In this document: piece by piece, positions 22,584-28,523 of the stretch | Position numbering within the stretch: the stretch's first letter is position 1 | How the letters are laid out: every line of letters begins with the position of its first letter | Source: Candidatus Humimicrobiaceae bacterium | GTDB lineage: Bacteria; Patescibacteriota; Minisyncoccia; Minisyncoccales; DG-74-1 | DNA: 64,000 nucleotides | Reading direction: 5' to 3' | Assembly: GCA_035530555.1 (NCBI GenBank) | Contig: DATKUR010000003.1 | Location: 19,184 to 83,183 of the forward strand | The notes under the pieces: model-generated | Told to the model about the DNA's origin: nothing | Database searches by the model: none | Seen by the model: the letters and a program-made list of their open reading frames with translations, nothing else | Position numbers and translations under genes: made by a program

Positions 22584-22588
22584 CCTAA

Positions 22589-22614
22589 AGGTTCGAATCC
22601 CATCCCTGGAGCCA
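22589..22614 (+). repeat. repeat copy A: tRNA 3'-end-like fragment (T-loop GGTTCGAATCC + CCATCCCTGGAG + CCA)
   Basis: The sequence AGGTTCGAATCCCATCCCTGGAGCCA lies at the iorB stop. No cloverleaf can be folded upstream. Confidence 0.6.
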
Positions 22615-22687
22615 ACAGGAACACTTTCCTTAGTCAGTACTTTCTGTTATGCTTAGAGAATAATTAACTAATTAATAAAACACATAT

Positions 22688-22810
22688 ATGGCAAAAAGAA
22701 GCACGGGACTAGATAAACATAGAAAAACACATTCCCATAAAACCAAGAAGCGATTAGAAATAAAGCGGCTTATGCTTGAAGCCAAGGCAAACAAAAGAAA
22801 GCATAAATAA
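22688..22810 (+). CDS. hypothetical 40-aa highly basic small protein
   Basis: MAKRSTGLDKHRKTHSHKTKKRLEIKRLMLEAKANKRKHK. It is followed by motif copy B and a terminator, and has no clear SD sequence. Confidence 0.3.
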   Translation: MAKRSTGLDKHRKTHSHKTKKRLEIKRLMLEAKANKRKHK

Positions 22811-22822
22811 AGTTTATTAAAA

Positions 22823-22845
22823 ACAGGGTCTAACATCGTCCCTCC
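22823..22845 (+). repeat. repeat copy B (ACAGGGTCTAACATCGTCCCTCC)
   Basis: Matches the family consensus ACAGGTTCTAAC[AG]TCGTCC. Confidence 0.6.
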
Positions 22846-22898
22846 GCCAGCTGGCGTCGGGGGAGCACTTCGACAAGCTCAGTGTAAACCATAATTTT

Positions 22899-22924
22899 CC
22901 GCCTATTTATTTAGGCGGTTTTTT
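22899..22924 (+). terminator. rho-independent terminator
   Basis: CCGCCTATTTATTTAGGCGG hairpin followed by TTTTTT. Confidence 0.7.
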
Positions 22925-22953
22925 AATATTTTTATATCTGTGGATAAATGCTC

Positions 22954-23009
22954 TTGACAATATATTAGAATAATATAACATTAAGTTAGGTCGATATAAC
23001 ATAATGTTA
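22954..23009 (+). promoter_or_regulatory. promoter/operator-like region upstream of the DUF2975-XRE module
   Basis: TTGACA at 22954-22959. Direct repeats ATATAACAT at 22973-22981 and 22994-23002, and an inverted repeat AACATTA/TAATGTT at 22977-22983 and 23002-23008. Confidence 0.35.
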
Positions 23010-23038
23010 CAATTAAATAACTAAATTGATTAAAAAAT

Positions 23039-23476
23039 ATGAAAAAAGATAAAATCCGTTTAATTTTAATAACGACGGGAACAATTTTACTACTGATTGC
23101 CTTGGCATTATACGGATACACGGCCCTTATAAAAAAAGAAGCAACTCCTAGAGGGTTAATTCCCATTTTAATTCCATTGATTGTTATTATTTTTATGATG
23201 TTTTTCATTGGTAAAAGATACAAAGACGTAAAAGAAGGCATGCCTATGGAAGACGAAAGATCCAAAAAGGTCATAACGCAGGCCGCGGCCAAAAGTTTTT
23301 ATTTTTCGTTATACTGGCTGCTTGCGATTTCCTGGTTTGAACCCTTTTTTGCTAGAGTATTGTTCGGTGGGGAAAAACTAGATGCTGGTCAGACTGTGGG
23401 CGGCGGGATCGCCGGCATGGCAATTTTCTTTTTTATATTTTGGTTTTATTACGATAAAAAAGGCAAGTTAATTTAA
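23039..23476 (+). CDS. DUF2975-like small membrane protein
   Basis: A 145-aa protein with 3-4 TM segments, placed immediately upstream of a YozG-like HTH. This pairing is conserved elsewhere. Confidence 0.55.
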   Translation: MKKDKIRLILITTGTILLLIALALYGYTALIKKEATPRGLIPILIPLIVIIFMMFFIGKRYKDVKEGMPMEDERSKKVITQAAAKSFYFSLYWLLAISWFEPFFARVLFGGEKLDAGQTVGGGIAGMAIFFFIFWFYYDKKGKLI

Positions 23477-23482
23477 TCCACC

Positions 23483-23677
23483 ATGAAAAACAGGATAAAA
23501 GAATTCAGGGCAAAATATGATTTGACCCAGGAAGATCTGGCAAAGAAAGTCGGCGTAAGGCGGGAAACGATCGTTTATTTAGAGCAGAACAAATACAACC
23601 CGTCTCTTAATCTTGCTCACGACGTAGTCAAAGCGTTGAAAACAACGATTGACGAGCTATTTGATTTTAGGGATTAA
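23483..23677 (+). CDS. XRE-family (Cro/C1, HTH_26, YozG-like) transcriptional regulator
   Basis: [55 protein letters not shown]. Confidence 0.85.
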
Positions 23678-23700
23678 AATAATAGATAGTGATATTGTAA

Positions 23701-23724
23701 ACAGGTTCTAACGTCGTCCGTCCC
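23701..23724 (+). repeat. repeat copy C (ACAGGTTCTAACGTCGTCCGTCCC)
   Basis: Family consensus copy, immediately after the XRE gene. Confidence 0.6.
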
Positions 23725-23740
23725 CCGGAGCCCCAATTTC

Positions 23741-23769
23741 CCGCCGCTTTCTCAAGAAGGCGGTTTTTT
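23741..23769 (+). terminator. rho-independent terminator
   Basis: CCGCC...GGCGG stem followed by TTTTTT. Its 3' half, CAAGAAGGCGGTTTTTT, is repeated at 25829-25846. Confidence 0.6.
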
Positions 23770-23783
23770 GGTAGAATAGGATA

Positions 23784-24749
23784 ATGGAAATTAAAGAAAT
23801 CAAAATAGAAAATTTAGACCCCAAGGAATTTATAAGAGAAAAGATAGAAGAGATTTCTTCTATTATGGGGAATGATTTGGCCATTAACGCTTTGTCTGGT
23901 GGTGTTGACTCTTCAACCGTGACAATGTTGGGTCACAAAGCCTTAGGCGATAAACTTAAGACATATTTTATTGACAATGGATTAATGAGACAGAATGAAC
24001 CTCAGCAGATTGCTTCAGCCTTTAAGAGCTTGGGTGTTCAGGTGGAGATAATTAATGCTCAAGAAAAATTTTTTAGTGCCTTAAAAGACATAAGAAACCC
24101 AGAAGAAAAAAGAGAAGCTATTACCCAAACATTTTATAAAGATGTATTTGGTAAGCTTGTAATAGAAAACGATGCTAAATATCTTCTACAAGGAACTATT
24201 TTAACTGACATAGATGAAACTATCGCTAGCATCAAGAGACAGCATAATGTTTTTGAACAACTGGGCATTGATCCCGAAAGAGTATTTGGATATAAGATTA
24301 TAGAACCTTTAATACAGCTTCGAAAGGATGGAGTAAGAAAGGTAGCTGAGGCAATTGGATTGCCAGAATCTATATATAATAGAATGCCCTTTTGTGGTCC
24401 AGCCTTGGCTGCAAGAGTAATTGGAGAAGTAACCCCCGAAAGAATAGAGGTTGTAAGAAAGGCCACCGCTATTATTGAAAACGAGTTAAGCAATACTAAT
24501 TCTTTTCAGTATATGGCAATTTTACATAATGATAGAGTTACGGGGATACGAAACGGAAAAAGAGACTTCGGTTTCCAAATCGAACTTAGGTGCTGGGATA
24601 GCATTGACGCAAGAACAGCAATTCCGACTAGATTGCCTTATAATACTTTGGAGCAATTAGCTCAAAAAATAACAACTGAAATTCTTGGTGTAGTAAGTGT
24701 AACCTACAATATAACTCCGAAACCTCCTTCAACCATGGAAGCTGTTTAA
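23784..24749 (+). CDS. guaAB: GMP synthase subunit B (PP-loop ATP pyrophosphatase; archaeal-type split GuaA)
   Basis: SGGVDSS PP-loop, FIDNGLMR, a C-terminal dimerisation domain ending KPPSTMEAV, a length of 321 aa, and no glutamine amidotransferase domain. Confidence 0.8.
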   Translation: MEIKEIKIENLDPKEFIREKIEEISSIMGNDLAINALSGGVDSSTVTMLGHKALGDKLKTYFIDNGLMRQNEPQQIASAFKSLGVQVEIINAQEKFFSALKDIRNPEEKREAITQTFYKDVFGKLVIENDAKYLLQGTILTDIDETIASIKRQHNVFEQLGIDPERVFGYKIIEPLIQLRKDGVRKVAEAIGLPESIYNRMPFCGPALAARVIGEVTPERIEVVRKATAIIENELSNTNSFQYMAILHNDRVTGIRNGKRDFGFQIELRCWDSIDARTAIPTRLPYNTLEQLAQKITTEILGVVSVTYNITPKPPSTMEAV

Positions 24750-24835
24750 CTATTTTTTCTTTAAAATAGCTTCTAAAATCATCTAGCCAAAGGAATTAAA
24801 GTTGATTTTTCAATCCCAAATCCTTCCAAAAACCA

Positions 24836-24862
24836 AGTTCTAATATTGTACCATCCCTGGAG
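24836..24862 (+). repeat. repeat copy D (AAGTTCTAATATTGTACCATCCCTGGAG), diverged
   Basis: Shares GTTCTAA and CCATCCCTGGAG with copy A and aligns with copy C. Confidence 0.5.
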
Positions 24863-24871
24863 TAGGCTTGT

Positions 24872-24920
24872 GCTCGGTTCTTGTGACCGAGCCGCCCCGA
24901 AAGTTTTCTCGGGGTTTTGT
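24872..24920 (+). terminator. tandem hairpins/terminator after guaAB
   Basis: GCTCGGTTCTTGTGACCGAGC followed by CCCCGAAAGTTTTCTCGGGG and TTTTGTGTT. Confidence 0.6.
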
Positions 24921-24940
24921 GTTAAAATACCTAATATACT

Positions 24941-25216
24941 ATGATTGATATTATTTTATCGTTGATTGGCGGAATCATTATAGGTTGTTTAATTAAACTG
25001 AAAGAATCTCAGAAAATTTTACTTGAAAGGAGTTATACTGTTGTAATTTTCTTATTGATTTTTTTTATGGGATTAGCGGTCGGTTTAAACAAATCTATTT
25101 TCCAGAATTTGCCTAAAATTGGTGGATACGCAATATTGTTTTCAATCTTTACAATTATTGGAAGTATTGCTGGGGTAATTATTTTAGAGAAAACAAAAAT
25201 AACGAGATTAAAATGA
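24941..25216 (+). CDS. LysO/DUF340-family small membrane protein (N-terminal piece of a split pair)
   Basis: A 91-aa protein with 2-3 TM segments that overlaps the next gene by 4 nt. The pairing resembles two-gene DUF340 modules. Confidence 0.45.
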   Translation: MIDIILSLIGGIIIGCLIKLKESQKILLERSYTVVIFLLIFFMGLAVGLNKSIFQNLPKIGGYAILFSIFTIIGSIAGVIILEKTKITRLK

Positions 25217-25812
25217 TAGTCTTAATTTTATCTGCATTGGTTATTGGGATAGGAATGGCTTTCTTTAATTTGACCCCTCCTGGTTTAATTAATTACATAG
25301 ACTCAATCTTGAGGTTTCTGCTAATTATTTTATTGTTTCTTGTTGGAATTGATATTGGAACTAATAAGAAAGCCATATTCGGGCTTAAAAAAATGGGCTT
25401 TAGAATATTGCTTATTCCTGCAGTCATAATTGCGGGGAGCTTGACCGGGGGATTATTATTGAGTTTCTTTATAAACTTTTCTATTTTTAAATCATTGGCG
25501 ATAGCTTCGGGAATGGGTTATTATACTTTATCAAGTATAATTTTAACTCAAATGGTTGGTAGTGAATTGGGAACAATGGCATTCCTGTCGAATATTATAA
25601 GAGAAATTTTGACAATTATCATTACTCCTTTTATTTCGAAGAAAAGCCAGCTATCGCCGATTGCGGCCGGTGGAGCAACATCAATGGATACGACCCTTCC
25701 TGTAATCGTTAGATTTACTTCAAAAACAGTTGGACTGATTTCAATAATTAGCGGAGTTATTATTACTTTTTTGGTTCCGTTATTAGTTACTTTTTTTGCA
25801 GGATTAATATAG
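25213..25812 (+). CDS. LysO/DUF340-family membrane protein (large piece)
   Basis: A 199-aa multi-TM protein with Gly-rich helices; the call rests on family resemblance only. Confidence 0.45.
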   Translation: MIVLILSALVIGIGMAFFNLTPPGLINYIDSILRFLLIILLFLVGIDIGTNKKAIFGLKKMGFRILLIPAVIIAGSLTGGLLLSFFINFSIFKSLAIASGMGYYTLSSIILTQMVGSELGTMAFLSNIIREILTIIITPFISKKSQLSPIAAGGATSMDTTLPVIVRFTSKTVGLISIISGVIITFLVPLLVTFFAGLI

Positions 25813-25860
25813 TATTTATTCCATATCGCCAAGAAGGCGGTTTTTTGCTAAAATGAAAGC

Positions 25861-26367
25861 ATGAAAATAATTGGTATATCTGGAAGCCCCAGAGACAAAA
25901 ATACAAATTATATGTTGAGGACAGTTCTTGACGCAACTAATCAAAAGTACGAATTAATTCTTTTGAAAGATAAAAAAATTCAACCCTGTAATGCCTGTAG
26001 AAAATGCTCTGGAACTAATAATTGTATTATCAATGACGATATGCAGGAAATATATAAGAAATTATCAGAGGCAAATATCATTGTTTTGGGAAGTCCAACT
26101 TATTTTGATAATGTTACCGGAATAATGAAGAATTTCATTGATAGATGCCTGCCCTTTTATGCTGCTAGAAAATTAGAAGGTAAAAAAGTGGCCTTAGTTA
26201 CAGTTGGGAATGGCGATGATAATTCTGTAAAAGGATGCATAAGAGCATTAGAGGGTTTTTGTAAACATATGAGGCTCCAGATCGTTGAAAGCGTTTATGC
26301 AACCCATGACAATACTCAAGCCAAAGAAGAAGAGTTAATTCAATTAGGGGGAAAACTTACTTTTTAG
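25861..26367 (+). CDS. iron-sulfur flavoprotein / NADPH-dependent FMN reductase family
   Basis: MKIIGISGSPRDKNTNYML, a flavodoxin-like fold, and a compact Cys motif CNACRKCSGTNNC. Confidence 0.75.
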   Translation: MKIIGISGSPRDKNTNYMLRTVLDATNQKYELILLKDKKIQPCNACRKCSGTNNCIINDDMQEIYKKLSEANIIVLGSPTYFDNVTGIMKNFIDRCLPFYAARKLEGKKVALVTVGNGDDNSVKGCIRALEGFCKHMRLQIVESVYATHDNTQAKEEELIQLGGKLTF

Positions 26368-26401
26368 TTGTTCTTATTTGCGGAGTTTTTTTATTCCAGA
26401 T

Positions 26402-26423
26402 AGATTCTAACGTCGTCCGTCCC
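26402..26423 (+). repeat. repeat copy E (AGATTCTAACGTCGTCCGTCCC)
   Basis: Family consensus copy, after the flavoprotein gene. Confidence 0.6.
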
Positions 26424-26466
26424 TCGGAGTCGCAAATTTTACGACTCGGAGGCCTTGATTTTTTTT
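26422..26466 (+). terminator. rho-independent terminator
   Basis: An 11-bp stem CCTCGGAGTCG/CGACTCGGAGG followed by a T-run. Confidence 0.75.
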
Positions 26467-26512
26467 ATAGAATATTTTATATCTAAATAAGAAGATTGCA
26501 CCCTTAAAAATT

Positions 26513-26575
26513 GAAAATGGGCGTAGATCTATCGAATAAACTAAGGAGGGTTAAGAAAATGGGCGTAGATCTATC
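26513..26575 (+). repeat. tandem direct repeat (21 nt GAAAATGGGCGTAGATCTATC repeated, period 42 nt) spanning the gene start
   Basis: Two perfect copies at 26513-26533 and 26555-26575. The second copy is preceded by AGGAGG. Confidence 0.8.
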
Positions 26576-27083
26576 TAACAAACCATGTGAAGTTGAAATG
26601 TATTGGCGGGGTAGCGAGGAATATATCCCTGAATTCTGGAAAAAAGAAGAACGAAAAGCAAGAAAAGAACATGAATGCTGTGAATGTAGAAGGACGATTC
26701 CAATTAGATCAAGATATCTTTATTTTGTCGGCAAGTGGCTTGATCCAGTCTGGGGGGAACCATTTTTTGACAACTACAAGATGTGTCTTAGTTGCGGCAG
26801 AGACTGGCAAACAGTAATAGCAGTATTTCAAGAAAACGGAGAAGAAGATGCCTGCGTTGTTTTTGAGAGACTTGAGAAAGCGATTAAGAATGCTTTTGAA
26901 TGCGGCTTTCTCAAAGAATATGACCCGCTGGTTCAAAGATGGCTCCCGGATGTTATTGAGTCCCAAACAGAAGAGGAAGCAGAAGTCAATCTTTGGAAAG
27001 CAATAGAAATTTCTGCTGTAAGGAAAGGGTTACAACCAGTTCTTCCCGGACTATTCAAAACAGGTCCCCTAACAGCGAGTTAG
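26559..27083 (+). CDS. hypothetical Cys-rich protein (putative zinc ribbon)
   Basis: HECCECRR...CLSCG. The start was chosen at the second ATG (26559), which has an upstream AGGAGG. The ORF extends to a TTG at 26511 and an ATG at 26517. Confidence 0.5.
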   Translation: MGVDLSNKPCEVEMYWRGSEEYIPEFWKKEERKARKEHECCECRRTIPIRSRYLYFVGKWLDPVWGEPFFDNYKMCLSCGRDWQTVIAVFQENGEEDACVVFERLEKAIKNAFECGFLKEYDPLVQRWLPDVIESQTEEEAEVNLWKAIEISAVRKGLQPVLPGLFKTGPLTAS

Positions 27084-27093
27084 GGGACTTTTT
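27064..27093 (+). terminator. rho-independent terminator
   Basis: GTCCCCTAA...TTAGGGGAC hairpin followed by TTTTT, overlapping the stop codon. Confidence 0.75.
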
Positions 27094-27147
27094 ATTTACT
27101 AAATATTCTCAAACCAAATCTATTATCTTAAGTCAAATAGTTAATAG

Positions 27148-27177
27148 ACAGGTTCTAACATCGTCCATTAGGGGACC
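27148..27177 (+). repeat. repeat copy F (ACAGGTTCTAACATCGTCC + ATTAGGGGACC)
   Basis: Family consensus copy. Its tail repeats the TTAGGGGAC of the preceding terminator. Confidence 0.6.
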
Positions 27178-27263
27178 CTTCGATGCGACTCAGGATAAAC
27201 CCTGTCGAAAACCAAAAAATCGTCCCTAAGGCGATTTTAAAATATAATTTAATTCGTTAGGAG

Positions 27264-28523
27264 TTAGATTTTTTCTATTTGGGCGCCAAGTTTTCTTAAT
27301 TTCTCTTCAATTTTTTCATGACCTCTTTCTATTTGAGAAATGTTTTCAATTGTGTTTTTGCCCCTGGCAATCAAGCTGGCTAAAATCAAAGCAGCTCCTG
27401 ATCTGATGTCCGAGGAGCTGATTTTATTTCCGATTAATTCAGTTTTACCAAAAATCAAAGCCCGGTGAGGATCGGTAATTTCAATGTCAGCCCCCATCTT
27501 TCTTAACTCATGTAAATGCTGGAACCGATTTTCGTACAGAGGATCGTGGACTAATGATTTTCCTTGGGCTTGAGTTAGTAAAACTGATATTTGTGGCTGT
27601 AAATCGGTTGGAAAACCTGGGTAGGGAAGGACCTGGATCTTTGCCGGCTTGAAATCTTTAGAGGGCCTTACTAAAAATTCATCTGCCCTGACTTCAAAGT
27701 TTACTCCGACTTCCTTCATTTTTCCCAGAAAAAAAGTTAAATGATCGGGATTAATGTTTTTTATTTTTCCCTCTCCCCTAGTTATTGCTAAAGCAATAAA
27801 AAAAGTTCCGGCTTCTAATAAATCAGGACATAAAGAAAATTCGGCGCCGGACAACCTTTCTTTACCTTCAATTTCCAAAGTATGAGTGCCGATTCCTTCT
27901 ATTTTTACCCCCATTTTTCTTAAAAACAGCCCTAAATCTTGAACCTGAGGTTCAGCAGCGGCAATCTCAATTTTTGTTTTACCTTGAGCCCGGCTGGCCA
28001 ACATCATGACAATTTCCGTAGCCGTTACGGAGAACTCTTTCAGGGCTATTTTTCCCCCCTCTAATTTTTCTGGCGCTCTAAAATGATAAAAACCGTCTCT
28101 TTCTTCAGCTTGGACTCCAAAACTTTCCAGAGCTTCCAAATGAGTAGCAATCGGTCTTAGGCCAATTTTATCTCCGCCGGGATGTGGCACTTTGAAACTT
28201 TTAAACCTAATAGCCAGCGGGCCAATAAATAATACCGAAACCCGCATTTTCTCAAAAAGATCAACCGGAATTTTTTCCGGGTTAATGTTTTTAGGGTTTA
28301 TTTTTATCTTTCTTTTGTCCAGCCACTCAATTTTTACTCCCATCTCTTTCAGGATTTCAATCTGGTCCAAAACGTCAGAGACTAAAGGCAGATTGTCGAT
28401 AACCGATTCTTCTTCAGTCAGTAAAGCAGCCGCTAAAATCGCGCCGGCTGAATTTTTATAACCAGAAATTTCTACTTCGCCCGAGAGAGGAACACCACCT
28501 TTAATTAAAAACTTGTCCGCCAT
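27264..28523 (-). CDS. murA: UDP-N-acetylglucosamine 1-carboxyvinyltransferase
   Basis: MADKFLIKGGVPLSGEVEISGYKNSAGAILAAALL, over 419 aa. Confidence 0.93.
   Translation of the reverse strand: MADKFLIKGGVPLSGEVEISGYKNSAGAILAAALLTEEESVIDNLPLVSDVLDQIEILKEMGVKIEWLDKRKIKINPKNINPEKIPVDLFEKMRVSVLFIGPLAIRFKSFKVPHPGGDKIGLRPIATHLEALESFGVQAEERDGFYHFRAPEKLEGGKIALKEFSVTATEIVMMLASRAQGKTKIEIAAAEPQVQDLGLFLRKMGVKIEGIGTHTLEIEGKERLSGAEFSLCPDLLEAGTFFIALAITRGEGKIKNINPDHLTFFLGKMKEVGVNFEVRADEFLVRPSKDFKPAKIQVLPYPGFPTDLQPQISVLLTQAQGKSLVHDPLYENRFQHLHELRKMGADIEITDPHRALIFGKTELIGNKISSSDIRSGAALILASLIARGKNTIENISQIERGHEKIEEKLRKLGAQIEKI

Follow-up and report, generated by a model that had tools for sequence, protein, structure and literature searches.

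A tRNA-Asn-like repeat as a candidate recombination site bounding small gene cassettes between iorB and murA in a Patescibacteria genome

Small gene modules that carry no recombinase of their own can lie between short conserved sites and be moved by a recombinase encoded elsewhere, as in the Xer-dependent modules of integrative mobile elements exploiting Xer (IMEX) and the pdif modules of Acinetobacter, in which the pdif sites alternate in orientation around the modules. In the tycheposons of Prochlorococcus, partial tRNAs lie between the elements and newer elements push older ones deeper into the island (bioRxiv 10.1101/2020.12.28.424599). Surveys of the Candidate Phyla Radiation (CPR; Patescibacteria) report islands and horizontal transfer, and one of them (PMC12455944) does so without mention of a tRNA anchor, an integrase or direct repeats. 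Here we analyze a 64,000-nucleotide (nt) stretch of contig DATKUR010000003.1 (positions 19,184 to 83,183; Candidatus Humimicrobiaceae bacterium, assembly GCA_035530555.1), referred to hereafter as the window. Judged by gene order in relatives, it holds a ~4.7-kb block of small, unrelated genes that is inserted between the normally adjacent housekeeping genes iorB and murA of this CPR bacterium, and a short motif recurs along the block. We think it probable, though well short of assured, that the motif is an att-type DNA recombination site derived from the 3' end of tRNA-Asn, bounding small integrase-less cassettes in the inserted island. The same site marks similar arrays in hundreds of ultra-small bacteria, a distribution suggestive of an undescribed means of gene collection akin to integrons. 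We found no description of the site sequence, or of tRNA-Asn-linked cassette arrays in the CPR, in the searchable literature.

The case for an insertion comes from synteny. Among 80 relatives chosen by MurA (65-92% identity; 851 kb of DNA), 65 were informative for the junction, and in ~50 of these iorB and murA lie tail-to-tail with their stop codons 3-60 nt apart or overlapping; the stretch in the window is therefore an insertion. None of its genes was present at the junction in any of the 80 relatives. Other inserts occupy the same place, of 4.9 kb in relative L132, 3.2 kb in L133 (leuCDB), 3.1 kb in L139, 1.9 kb in L198, 1.1 kb in L191, 0.9 kb in L134 and 0.8 kb in L203, and none of these seven contains a gene of the window's island. 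On a MurA tree (neighbor-joining, one gene only) the inserts fall in three clades while empty junctions are nested inside the window's own clade, which indicates a junction where inserts have probably been gained, lost or replaced repeatedly. The initial annotation, made from the window alone, had looked to the iorB...murA region for presence/absence variation among relatives, and such variation was found, with the two genes abutting in ~50 genomes and separated by different inserts in roughly eight others. Site copies in the 851 kb numbered three in total, every one at the iorB/murA junction (one in L134, two in L138). Short forms resembling the first copy in the window (site A, below) begin 1-8 nt past the iorB stop codon in L132, L134, L198 and L203.

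Two other features of this junction were noted. The empty junctions of the ~50 relatives hold no copy of the site, and a pseudo-att predecessor there is doubtful: the sequence AAAGGTTAGAC is present at the junction in some relatives but not in the closest empty ones. Separately, the 3' end of iorB carries in some relatives a 46-nt repeat, AGCGACAGCGAAGCG[GT]TGAAATGAACTTTAGTTCATTGATCTCGCG, that expands in tandem at the same junction. There is one copy in L143, L144, L146, L161, L171 and L199, two in L180 and three in L164, and the gap between iorB and murA is 55, 101 and 147 nt for one, two and three copies, respectively.

The island and the copies of the site are as follows.

22584..27263, plus strand: whole inserted island, from the iorB stop codon (22583) to the murA stop codon (27264, minus strand).
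22590..22614, plus strand: site A, short form, GGTTCGAATCCCATCCCTGGAGCCA; the 3'-terminal 25 nt of a tRNA-Asn-like gene with the 5' part absent; proximal island boundary.
22821..22866, plus strand: site B, long form (E = 3e-5); the sixth core position is G, and the variable stretch is interrupted by a palindromic insertion, CGCCAGCTGGCG.
23699..23731, plus strand: site C, long form (E = 9e-10); perfect core, heptamer GTCCCCC, tail GGAGC.
24833..24863, plus strand: site D, a diverged long-form left arm joined to CCATCCCTGGAG, read from the sequence.
26400..26430, plus strand: site E, long form (ATAGATTCTAAC...; E = 4e-4); heptamer GTCCCTC, tail GGAGT.
27060..27088, plus strand: degenerate seventh copy, ACAGGTCCCCTAACAGCGAGTTAGGGGAC, now a perfect hairpin terminator (ACAGGTCCCCTAAC-AGCGA-GTTAGGGGAC).
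27146..27178, plus strand: site F, long form (E = 5e-9); perfect core, heptamer ATTAGGG, tail GACCC; distal boundary site.

The core motif ACAGGTTCTAACRTCGTCC matched the window four times at up to three mismatches (22823, 23701, 26400 and 27148, all on the plus strand), where chance predicts 0.01 matches and none of 100 shuffled sequences gave as many. The pattern of these strong copies is ACAGGTTCTAAC-R-TCGTCC-N7-GGAGC, R being a purine. An nhmmer profile built from 138 copies outside the window recovered the same four in the 64 kb and nothing further below E = 1; the remaining 59 kb of the window thus contains no copy by profile search. Sites A and D score below the threshold of the profile. 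Site A consists of the T-loop TTCGAAT, the 3' strand of the T-stem, the 3' strand of the acceptor stem, G73 and CCA, that is, a true tRNA 3' end, and it matches the 3' end of a real tRNA-Asn (locus L097) at 21 of 25 bases; on its form it is distinct in kind from sites B to F. ARAGORN and Rfam detected no tRNA cloverleaf at any of the window copies. Site D resembles diverged copies of other genomes and has in common with A the exact 12-mer CCATCCCTGGAG, made up of heptamer and tail, which occurs twice in all where 0.00 matches are expected. This 12-nt direct repeat brackets positions 22615-24850, containing the first three units, and A and D may be likened to an attL/attR pair around them. The degenerate copy at 27060-27088 shares ACAGGT and TTAGGGGAC with site F and doubles as the terminator of the cysteine-rich open reading frame (ORF) that precedes it.

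Much of what the initial annotation had read from the letters stands. It had counted six copies of the motif, of which the four strong ones hold as such, while A and D are related copies below threshold and A is a different form; three of its four coordinates for the strong copies were right and the fourth, 26402, becomes 26400. Its resemblance of A to a tRNA T-loop plus acceptor 3' half plus CCA, with no cloverleaf to be folded, agrees with ARAGORN and Rfam, and the likeness that it saw between A and D is the exact 12-mer. Among the ways in which it said that the idea might fail were a motif no commoner than in shuffled sequence and a ubiquitous genome-wide repeat; the counts given above, for the shuffles, the other 59 kb and the relatives' 851 kb, speak against both. 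Its broader view, of a cassette-like accessory stretch with repeats derived from a tRNA 3' end, is supported by the insertion, by the turnover at the junction and by the link to tRNA-Asn described below.

Outside the window the site was sought as an exact 19-mer, taking one genome per species, which yielded at least 118 stretches. The carriers are mostly Patescibacteria of many classes, and the 19-mer also occurs in Zixibacteria (a 2.7-Mb chromosome) and Omnitrophota (a 1.3-Mb contig). A profile search of the 820 kb of fetched DNA gave 220 copies. Alignment of 145 unique copies gave a site of ~33 nt, namely AA (90% each), ACAGGTTCTAAC, R, TCGTCC, A (70%), about six variable nt and (C/G)GGAGC, with no sequence information in the flanks outside it. 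The left arm, AA-ACAGGTTCTAAC-R-TCGTCC, measures 22 nt, and the GGAGC end often runs on as CCA. In 49 of 50 multi-copy loci every copy lay on the same strand; neighboring copies were a median of 860 nt apart, as many as 7 of them occurring within 8 kb, and units ranged from ~0.2 to 2.5 kb. The upstream gene was co-oriented with the site in 165 of 195 cases (85%), and the site began at a median of 57 nt past its stop codon, several ORFs stopping at a TAA within the site itself. The ~1,100 neighboring ORFs are extremely diverse, the largest family being found in only 10 loci. Units of the arrays comprise one or two small, mostly hypothetical genes, and housekeeping genes form the outer bounds. 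A DNA uptake sequence or genome-wide repeat was rejected on the clustering of copies in the 64-kb window and in the 851 kb from relatives. Repetitive extragenic palindromes (REP), bacterial interspersed mosaic elements (BIME) and miniature inverted-repeat transposable elements (MITE) are dispersed, in both orientations, with palindromic sequence or terminal inverted repeats; here the copies occupy 4.7 kb of the 64-kb window, form single-strand arrays and are not palindromic.

One viral-collection contig alone, from IMG/VR (L212, 14690-14730), carries the site. Its base composition shifts from AT-rich to ~50% GC exactly at the GGAGC end, a switch that reflects either a real foreign-element junction at the site or a chimeric assembly. 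Viral contigs were set aside as the source of an attP site with its integrase, this being a single uninformative match.

The tie to tRNA-Asn is the second strand of evidence. tRNA-Asn(GTT) accounts for 11 of the 53 tRNA genes in site-bearing loci, against an expectation of one or two, and each of the 11 is upstream of sites and on their strand. These loci usually read dnaG-rpoD-tRNA-Asn and then, at once, a variable array of site-ended units; in the window itself, only the 25-nt tRNA-Asn 3' fragment of site A heads the island. The source tRNA, which the initial annotation had suggested looking for, can thus be named as tRNA-Asn(GTT), heading arrays in 11 loci. AGGTTC.AA and GGAGC(CA) are the points of likeness between the site and the 3' end of tRNA-Asn (…GTAGGTTCGAATCCTAC-CCGCGGA-G-C[CA]). 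The long-form site is ~5 nt longer, with 4-5 extra nt in the T-loop region, and so cannot form a tRNA T-arm. Short forms (site A and those of L132, L134 and L198) are like a tRNA 3' end; the long form is no true partial tRNA and, by this comparison, is best described as a pseudo copy of the tRNA-Asn 3' end. What follows the site points the same way. Modules after GGAGC, comprising a terminator hairpin, a T-run and an extended -10 element such as TGGTAGAAT, are 92-100% identical over 15-57 nt to modules that follow tRNAs elsewhere, and they occur in the same register after real tRNA 3' ends (7 of 11 tRNA-Asn genes and 9 of 42 other tRNAs); the end of the site therefore occupies the position of a tRNA 3' end.

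Comparisons at base level place the edge of the mobile unit at the site. In the closest relative, L132 (MurA 92% identical), the iorB stop codon is followed by the short form CTAAAGGTTCGAATC…, the same as site A of the window, and then by a terminator/promoter module. Its single cassette differs from those of the window, encoding a 193-aa P-loop kinase-like ORF, and ends in a long-form site like F with the flank …GAAAACCAAA, again as at F. Both sites of L132 carry the same ~50-nt module downstream, so that the cassette lies between direct repeats. A two-gene cassette of 1.85 kb is 95% identical in L002 and L198; the site ahead of it is of the long form in L002 (…AACATCGTCCAGTCGGGGGAGC|TACGATTTCCGCC…) and of the short, tRNA-like form in L198, where that site comes right after the iorB stop codon (…GGTTCGAGTCCTCTAGGGGGAGC|CCCGATTTCCCGCC…). 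Homology between the two begins at GGGGGAGC, which places the left boundary of the cassette at the 3' end (GGAGC) of the site. L016 and L082 share a 5-kb block at 99.8% identity, outside which they are unrelated, the switch lying ~45 nt downstream of a degenerate site in L016. The heptamer is independent of both flanks, in that one upstream gene end was seen with three heptamers and one downstream cassette with different heptamers. It tracks neither neighbor, and its assignment to the upstream or the downstream cassette was dropped.

From these data we propose a unit plan and a mechanism. The units are arranged head-to-tail in one orientation, each consisting of a terminator/promoter module, one or two genes and a site. 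Circular or incoming cassettes would be inserted serially by a site-specific recombinase, most likely of the tyrosine type, whose gene would lie at another place in the genome or on a helper element. The enzyme would pair the long-form site borne by the cassette with a tRNA-Asn 3' end that the host genome already has, or with a displaced copy such as site A. Strands may be exchanged in or beside the variable heptamer, which would explain the reassortment of heptamers, if heterology is tolerated, and the 12-nt direct repeat of A and D; the partial dyad TCC-N7-GGA would fit a recombinase core. Each cassette would carry its own promoter and a terminator that insulates it from upstream transcription. 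Such a system would work in the manner of an integron, tRNA-Asn taking the part of attI and the long-form site that of attC, without being a member of the integron family. A wider claim, which we offer tentatively and regard as possible but somewhat short of likely, is that the sites belong to an unrecognized, integron-analogous gene-capture platform of Patescibacteria and, sporadically, of other phyla, in which tRNA-Asn or its displaced 3' end is the landing pad, the 33-nt site marks the cassettes, and an unlinked recombinase inserts, excises and exchanges them, housekeeping genes such as guaA-B among their cargo, within and between phyla.

Several observations weigh against recombination at the site. 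Recombinases were sought with two probe sequences, for the tyrosine and serine types, iterated with jackhmmer, plus clustering, in place of a full domain scan; by this probe-based search the ~1,100 ORFs of the 118 loci include one tyrosine recombinase (XerD-like) and no serine recombinase, and the window ORFs of at least 80 aa include neither, in line with the initial annotation, which had seen no integrase or recombinase in the window. None was found beside tRNA-Asn or in the viral contig L212. We found no excision product, and no pair of empty and occupied sites that is base-perfect on both sides. Contigs with identical IorB or MurA, from one population in several samples, have identical gene order, and the inserts of L139 and L191 sit at the iorB/murA junction without a recognizable site. 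The right arm has only five conserved nt, so the dyad symmetry is weak for a classical tyrosine-recombinase core. As the outside loci were picked by the exact 19-mer, the invariance of the core is partly there by construction, a selection artefact, although the profile search recovered 55 core variants despite this ascertainment; taxon labels of short contigs from metagenome-assembled genomes may also be wrong. Finally, a terminator-like hairpin lies 20-120 nt downstream in 38% of copies, with a peak 50-75 nt after the site start, by which the site would be transcribed in a 3' untranslated region (UTR); this is equally compatible with a role in RNA.

That last point leads to the alternative that the initial annotation had raised, an element at RNA 3' ends, which the evidence weakens and which we consider improbable. 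In this explanation the site is a single-stranded protein-binding or processing signal in the 3' UTR, a mimic of the tRNA-Asn tail that marks or stabilizes mRNA 3' ends and travels with horizontally acquired genes. The co-orientation with upstream genes at a median of 57 nt past the stop codon would be expected of such an element, as would the 38% of copies with a terminator-like hairpin at +31 to +150 and the common register of the GGAGC end and of real tRNA 3' ends to terminator modules. For 70-78% of copies a local hairpin is possible, GUUCU/GGAGC or UCC-N7-GGA; variation in the 5' arms is slight, and in the longer hairpin only 4 of 11 deviant positions of the 5' arm are still paired, so that near-invariant arms and uncompensated deviants give no positive evidence for structure. 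Rfam 15 had no match to the site at the gathering score and only noise at E <= 10, long-range mutual information was absent (signal was confined to adjacent columns of the variable stretch), and the window copies fold into unrelated local hairpins with z-scores of -0.1 to -3.2. The acceptor-like strand (heptamer plus GGA) has no complementary partner within +/-400 nt, counts being equal to those of controls. Moreover, 14% of copies lie just past a terminator, hence outside the upstream transcript, and a general mRNA signal would hardly be expected to be missing, as the site is, from core-gene regions of the 80 relatives and the remaining 59 kb of the window. The anchoring to tRNA-Asn, the breakpoints at GGAGC and the reassortment of heptamers are left unexplained by a signal in RNA. 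More specific RNA candidates fared no better. A full, split or permuted tRNA was rejected on the negative ARAGORN result (no tRNA overlaps any copy in the window or the 118 loci) and the partnerless acceptor strand; a riboswitch or leader for the downstream gene, on the lack of an Rfam match, the unrelated downstream genes and the promoter-like extended -10 after the terminator; and an independent small RNA gene, on the lack of a conserved upstream promoter signal, with less than 0.5 bit at positions -40 to -3.

Exchange without a dedicated enzyme is to our minds also unlikely. Here the site with its module, 60-100 nt and often 90-100% identical between species, would serve as portable homology, an anchor for RecA-dependent exchange of transformed DNA. 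That no linked recombinase turned up anywhere searched suits this account, as do the module identities of 92-100% across species over 15-57 nt, the L132 direct repeat that reaches ~50 nt past the site, and the DprA encoded in the window; occupation of the same junction in several relatives is also what homologous recombination in flanking genes would give. Neighboring sites of one array have strongly different modules, however, as do B, C, E and F of the window, which leaves ~22-33 nt of shared identity, too short or only just long enough for RecA to exchange efficiently. Breakpoints fall at the defined GGAGC position when they should be spread over the homology, a hypervariable heptamer between conserved arms would be unexpected, and the resemblance and anchoring to tRNA-Asn would have no explanation. 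Least probable of all, in our estimate, is that the copies are inert scars, decaying att remnants of prophages or islands that targeted tRNA-Asn, have since lost their integrases and leave no present function. Tycheposons offer a precedent in serial tRNA integration with partial-tRNA repeats pushed inward (bioRxiv 10.1101/2020.12.28.424599), and degenerate copies do exist (site D, that at 27060 and that at the L016 breakpoint). The units are far too small for this (median 860 nt), integrase fragments amount to one in 820 kb, and the long form is not a true partial tRNA; further, an arm of 19-22 nt that is identical across Patescibacteria classes, Zixibacteria and Omnitrophota beside a freely varying heptamer and flanks speaks of selection, not decay.

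The preferred account, recombination at a site derived from tRNA-Asn, was also set against known machineries. A classical attC site or integron was discarded, there being no R' box, no palindrome and, by the probe-based search, no IntI, and a dif/Xer site likewise, as the copies are direct and the locus shows no skew switch. A GIY-YIG nuclease was rejected as the machinery because it lies beside the site in only 2-3 of the 118 loci. A GIY-YIG gene does figure in a separate tandem array on the Zixibacteria chromosome (OY970208.1; L018, 2680-3790), where a real tRNA-Met is followed by three identical 344-nt units, each with a 91-aa GIY-YIG nuclease and a terminal, near-full-length pseudo-tRNA-Met. 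From its layout the unit looks like a homing-type element that targets and regenerates the tRNA gene.

The cargo genes of the island, in order, are listed here.

22688..22810, plus strand: cargo 1, a 40-aa basic protein; conserved Patescibacteria gene.
23039..23677, plus strand: cargo 2, a 145-aa membrane ORF and a 64-aa XRE-type helix-turn-helix regulator (Pfam HTH_3, E = 2e-13).
23784..24749, plus strand: cargo 3, guaA-B, the ATP-pyrophosphatase (PP-loop) subunit of GMP synthase (Pfam GMP_synt_C).
24941..25812, plus strand: cargo 4a, a split LysO-family exporter of 91 + 199 aa (Pfam Lys_export, E = 1e-59).
25861..26367, plus strand: cargo 4b, an NADPH-dependent FMN reductase-like flavoprotein (Pfam FMN_red, E = 8e-26).
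26511..27083, plus strand: cargo 5, a cysteine-rich ORF of 177-190 aa with no family match.

Pfam upheld the gene calls of the initial annotation except that the 145-aa ORF, taken there for DUF2975, has at best a weak match to DUF2178. The guaA-B of the window is 73% identical to a Nealsonbacteria copy (L078, 3-629), which itself has a site downstream, and only 58-62% identical to those of closer relatives (L134, L150, L183, L186 and L188), in which the gene lies upstream of leuS/glmS. There is no copy at the leuS/glmS position in the window. Judging by these identities and positions, a cassette seems to have been the means by which an essential gene was displaced or replaced.

The 40-aa ORF (MAKR..KTKKRLEIKRLMLEAKA..) has at least 269 homologous clusters at 76-93% identity and is unannotated. 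The 5' UTR is conserved, a promoter of its own precedes the gene, and the neighborhood was different in every genome examined (P0001-P0120; L213-L219); the product may be a ribosome- or nucleic-acid-associated small protein. Its candidacy as a recombination directionality factor was given up because the gene is conserved and widespread, has that separate promoter and shows no linkage to sites in randomly chosen genomes. The two LysO ORFs (91 and 199 aa) overlap by 4 nt and could represent a two-piece transporter or a frameshifted gene. The cysteine-rich ORF has a distant homolog in L108 (33% identity); its start, at 26513-26583, holds a 42-nt tandem duplication (GAAAATGGGCGTAGATCTATC.AA.AAAC) whose copies are 93% identical, and in the strain variant L128 the ORF measures 174 vs 188 aa.

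The terminator, promoter and hairpin modules between the cargo genes are as follows.

22865..22924, plus strand: module after B, made up of a conserved-loop hairpin (CACTTCGACAAGCTCAGTG) and then, at 22899-22924, a Rho-independent terminator (terminator search).
23743..23777, plus strand: terminator plus extended -10 (TGGTAGAAT) after C, 7 nt upstream of the guaA-B start.
25825..25854, plus strand: terminator plus extended -10 with no site attached, a duplicate of the post-C module.
26422..26467, plus strand: long hairpin terminator that shares its 5' arm in part with the 3' end of site E (fold).
27176..27240, plus strand: module after F, a conserved-loop hairpin (CCCTTCGATGCGACTCAGG) plus a terminator-like hairpin at 27214-27240 that faces the 3' end of murA (folds, cross-genome comparison).

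Terminator-like sites in the region number 10, against 3.8 +/- 2.2 expected. The hairpin terminators that had been placed after the copies are there, those after B, C and D by terminator search and those after E and F by eye and folding. Of the two terminator halves said to be duplicated mosaically, CAAGAAGGCGGTTTTTT does occur twice (23753 and 25830), and TTAGGGGAC (27080 and 27168) is only marginally above chance. Near-identical modules of the post-C type trail sites and real tRNAs in other genomes.

Such terminator plus extended -10 modules, for example CAAGAAGGCGGTTTTTTGGTAGAAT, are 92-100% identical between species (L028, L039, L044, L062, L071 and L107 among many) and sit after tRNAs, sites and ordinary genes alike. 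Conservation of this kind is unusual for an intergenic stretch and suggests that the modules themselves may be mobile. The conserved-loop hairpin (22865-22890 and 27176-27202 in the window) has the form CC/CACT-TTCGRYRMG(A)CTC-AGG/AGTG with a covarying stem. It is also found in L053, L066, L069 and L097, both adjacent to sites and standing alone, and in L069 a GIY-YIG gene follows it directly.

Elsewhere in the window, the IOR alpha and beta gene calls were upheld by Pfam, and the only tRNAs in the 64 kb are two tRNA-Leu. A transfer-messenger RNA gene on the minus strand (1-308; Rfam, 66 bits) is cut by the window start. The gene for DprA, a DNA-processing competence protein, lies at ~37.8-38.7 kb, ~10 kb from the island, and is consistent with natural transformation.

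The CPR makes up a large share of bacterial diversity, with tiny genomes in which the gain and exchange of genes are poorly understood. A sequence-defined site would be a simple marker, usable in metagenomes, for the flexible gene pool of these bacteria. For the few cultivable, naturally transformable Saccharibacteria it would be a concrete recombination substrate and a possible landing pad for genetic tools. The presence in cassettes of essential genes (guaA-B and the conserved 40-aa protein) bears on how core functions are replaced in reduced genomes. If the proposal is true, it describes an independent evolutionary solution to the problem that integrons solve.

How the arrays compare with described systems can now be set out. 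Like integrons and clusters of attC sites lacking integron-integrases (CALINs), they are co-oriented arrays of one- or two-gene units of diverse, mostly unknown functions with a site at the end of each unit, many of them lie without an adjacent integrase, and some ORFs end inside the site. Unlike attC, the site has no imperfect palindrome, no L''/L' stem and no extrahelical bases, and its conservation lies in sequence (the 22-nt arm) and not in structure. TTCTAAC, which is R''-like, is present, but over the 260 nt that follow 133 copies there is no enrichment of GTTRRRY, GTTAGRR or GTTAGAA, each 20-nt bin having 0-4, as upstream. Cassettes here have terminator and extended -10 modules of their own in place of a Pc promoter; the anchor is tRNA-Asn instead of attI/intI, and IntI was not found by the probe-based search of the 118 loci and the window. 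With Xer-dependent modules, as the literature describes them, the arrays share small recombinase-less gene modules bounded by short conserved sites. They differ in that all copies point the same way in 49 of 50 arrays, no GC-skew switch marks the locus and the site does not, by eye, resemble the 11-6-11 architecture of dif. The GIY-YIG units of L018 are likewise small tandem units seeded at a tRNA, each regenerating a pseudo-tRNA end; each has its own nuclease and duplicates a near-whole tRNA-Met, whereas the arrays here carry unrelated cargo. As in tycheposons, the island begins at a specific tRNA, repeats that resemble part of a tRNA lie between what would be successive insertions, the newer moving the older inward, and the content varies at a fixed location. 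Tycheposons are multi-kb elements with their own tyrosine or serine recombinase and often replication genes, whereas units here are ~0.2-2.5 kb without a recombinase, the repeated site is a longer pseudo-copy conserved across phyla, and the hosts are Patescibacteria, not cyanobacteria. Integrons and tRNA-integrating elements each have defining features that the arrays lack, for the former the attC architecture and IntI, for the latter element-borne integrases and, as regards the long form, a faithful partial tRNA; their closest counterparts are integron arrays and CALINs in function and tRNA-anchored serial islands, the tycheposons, in origin.

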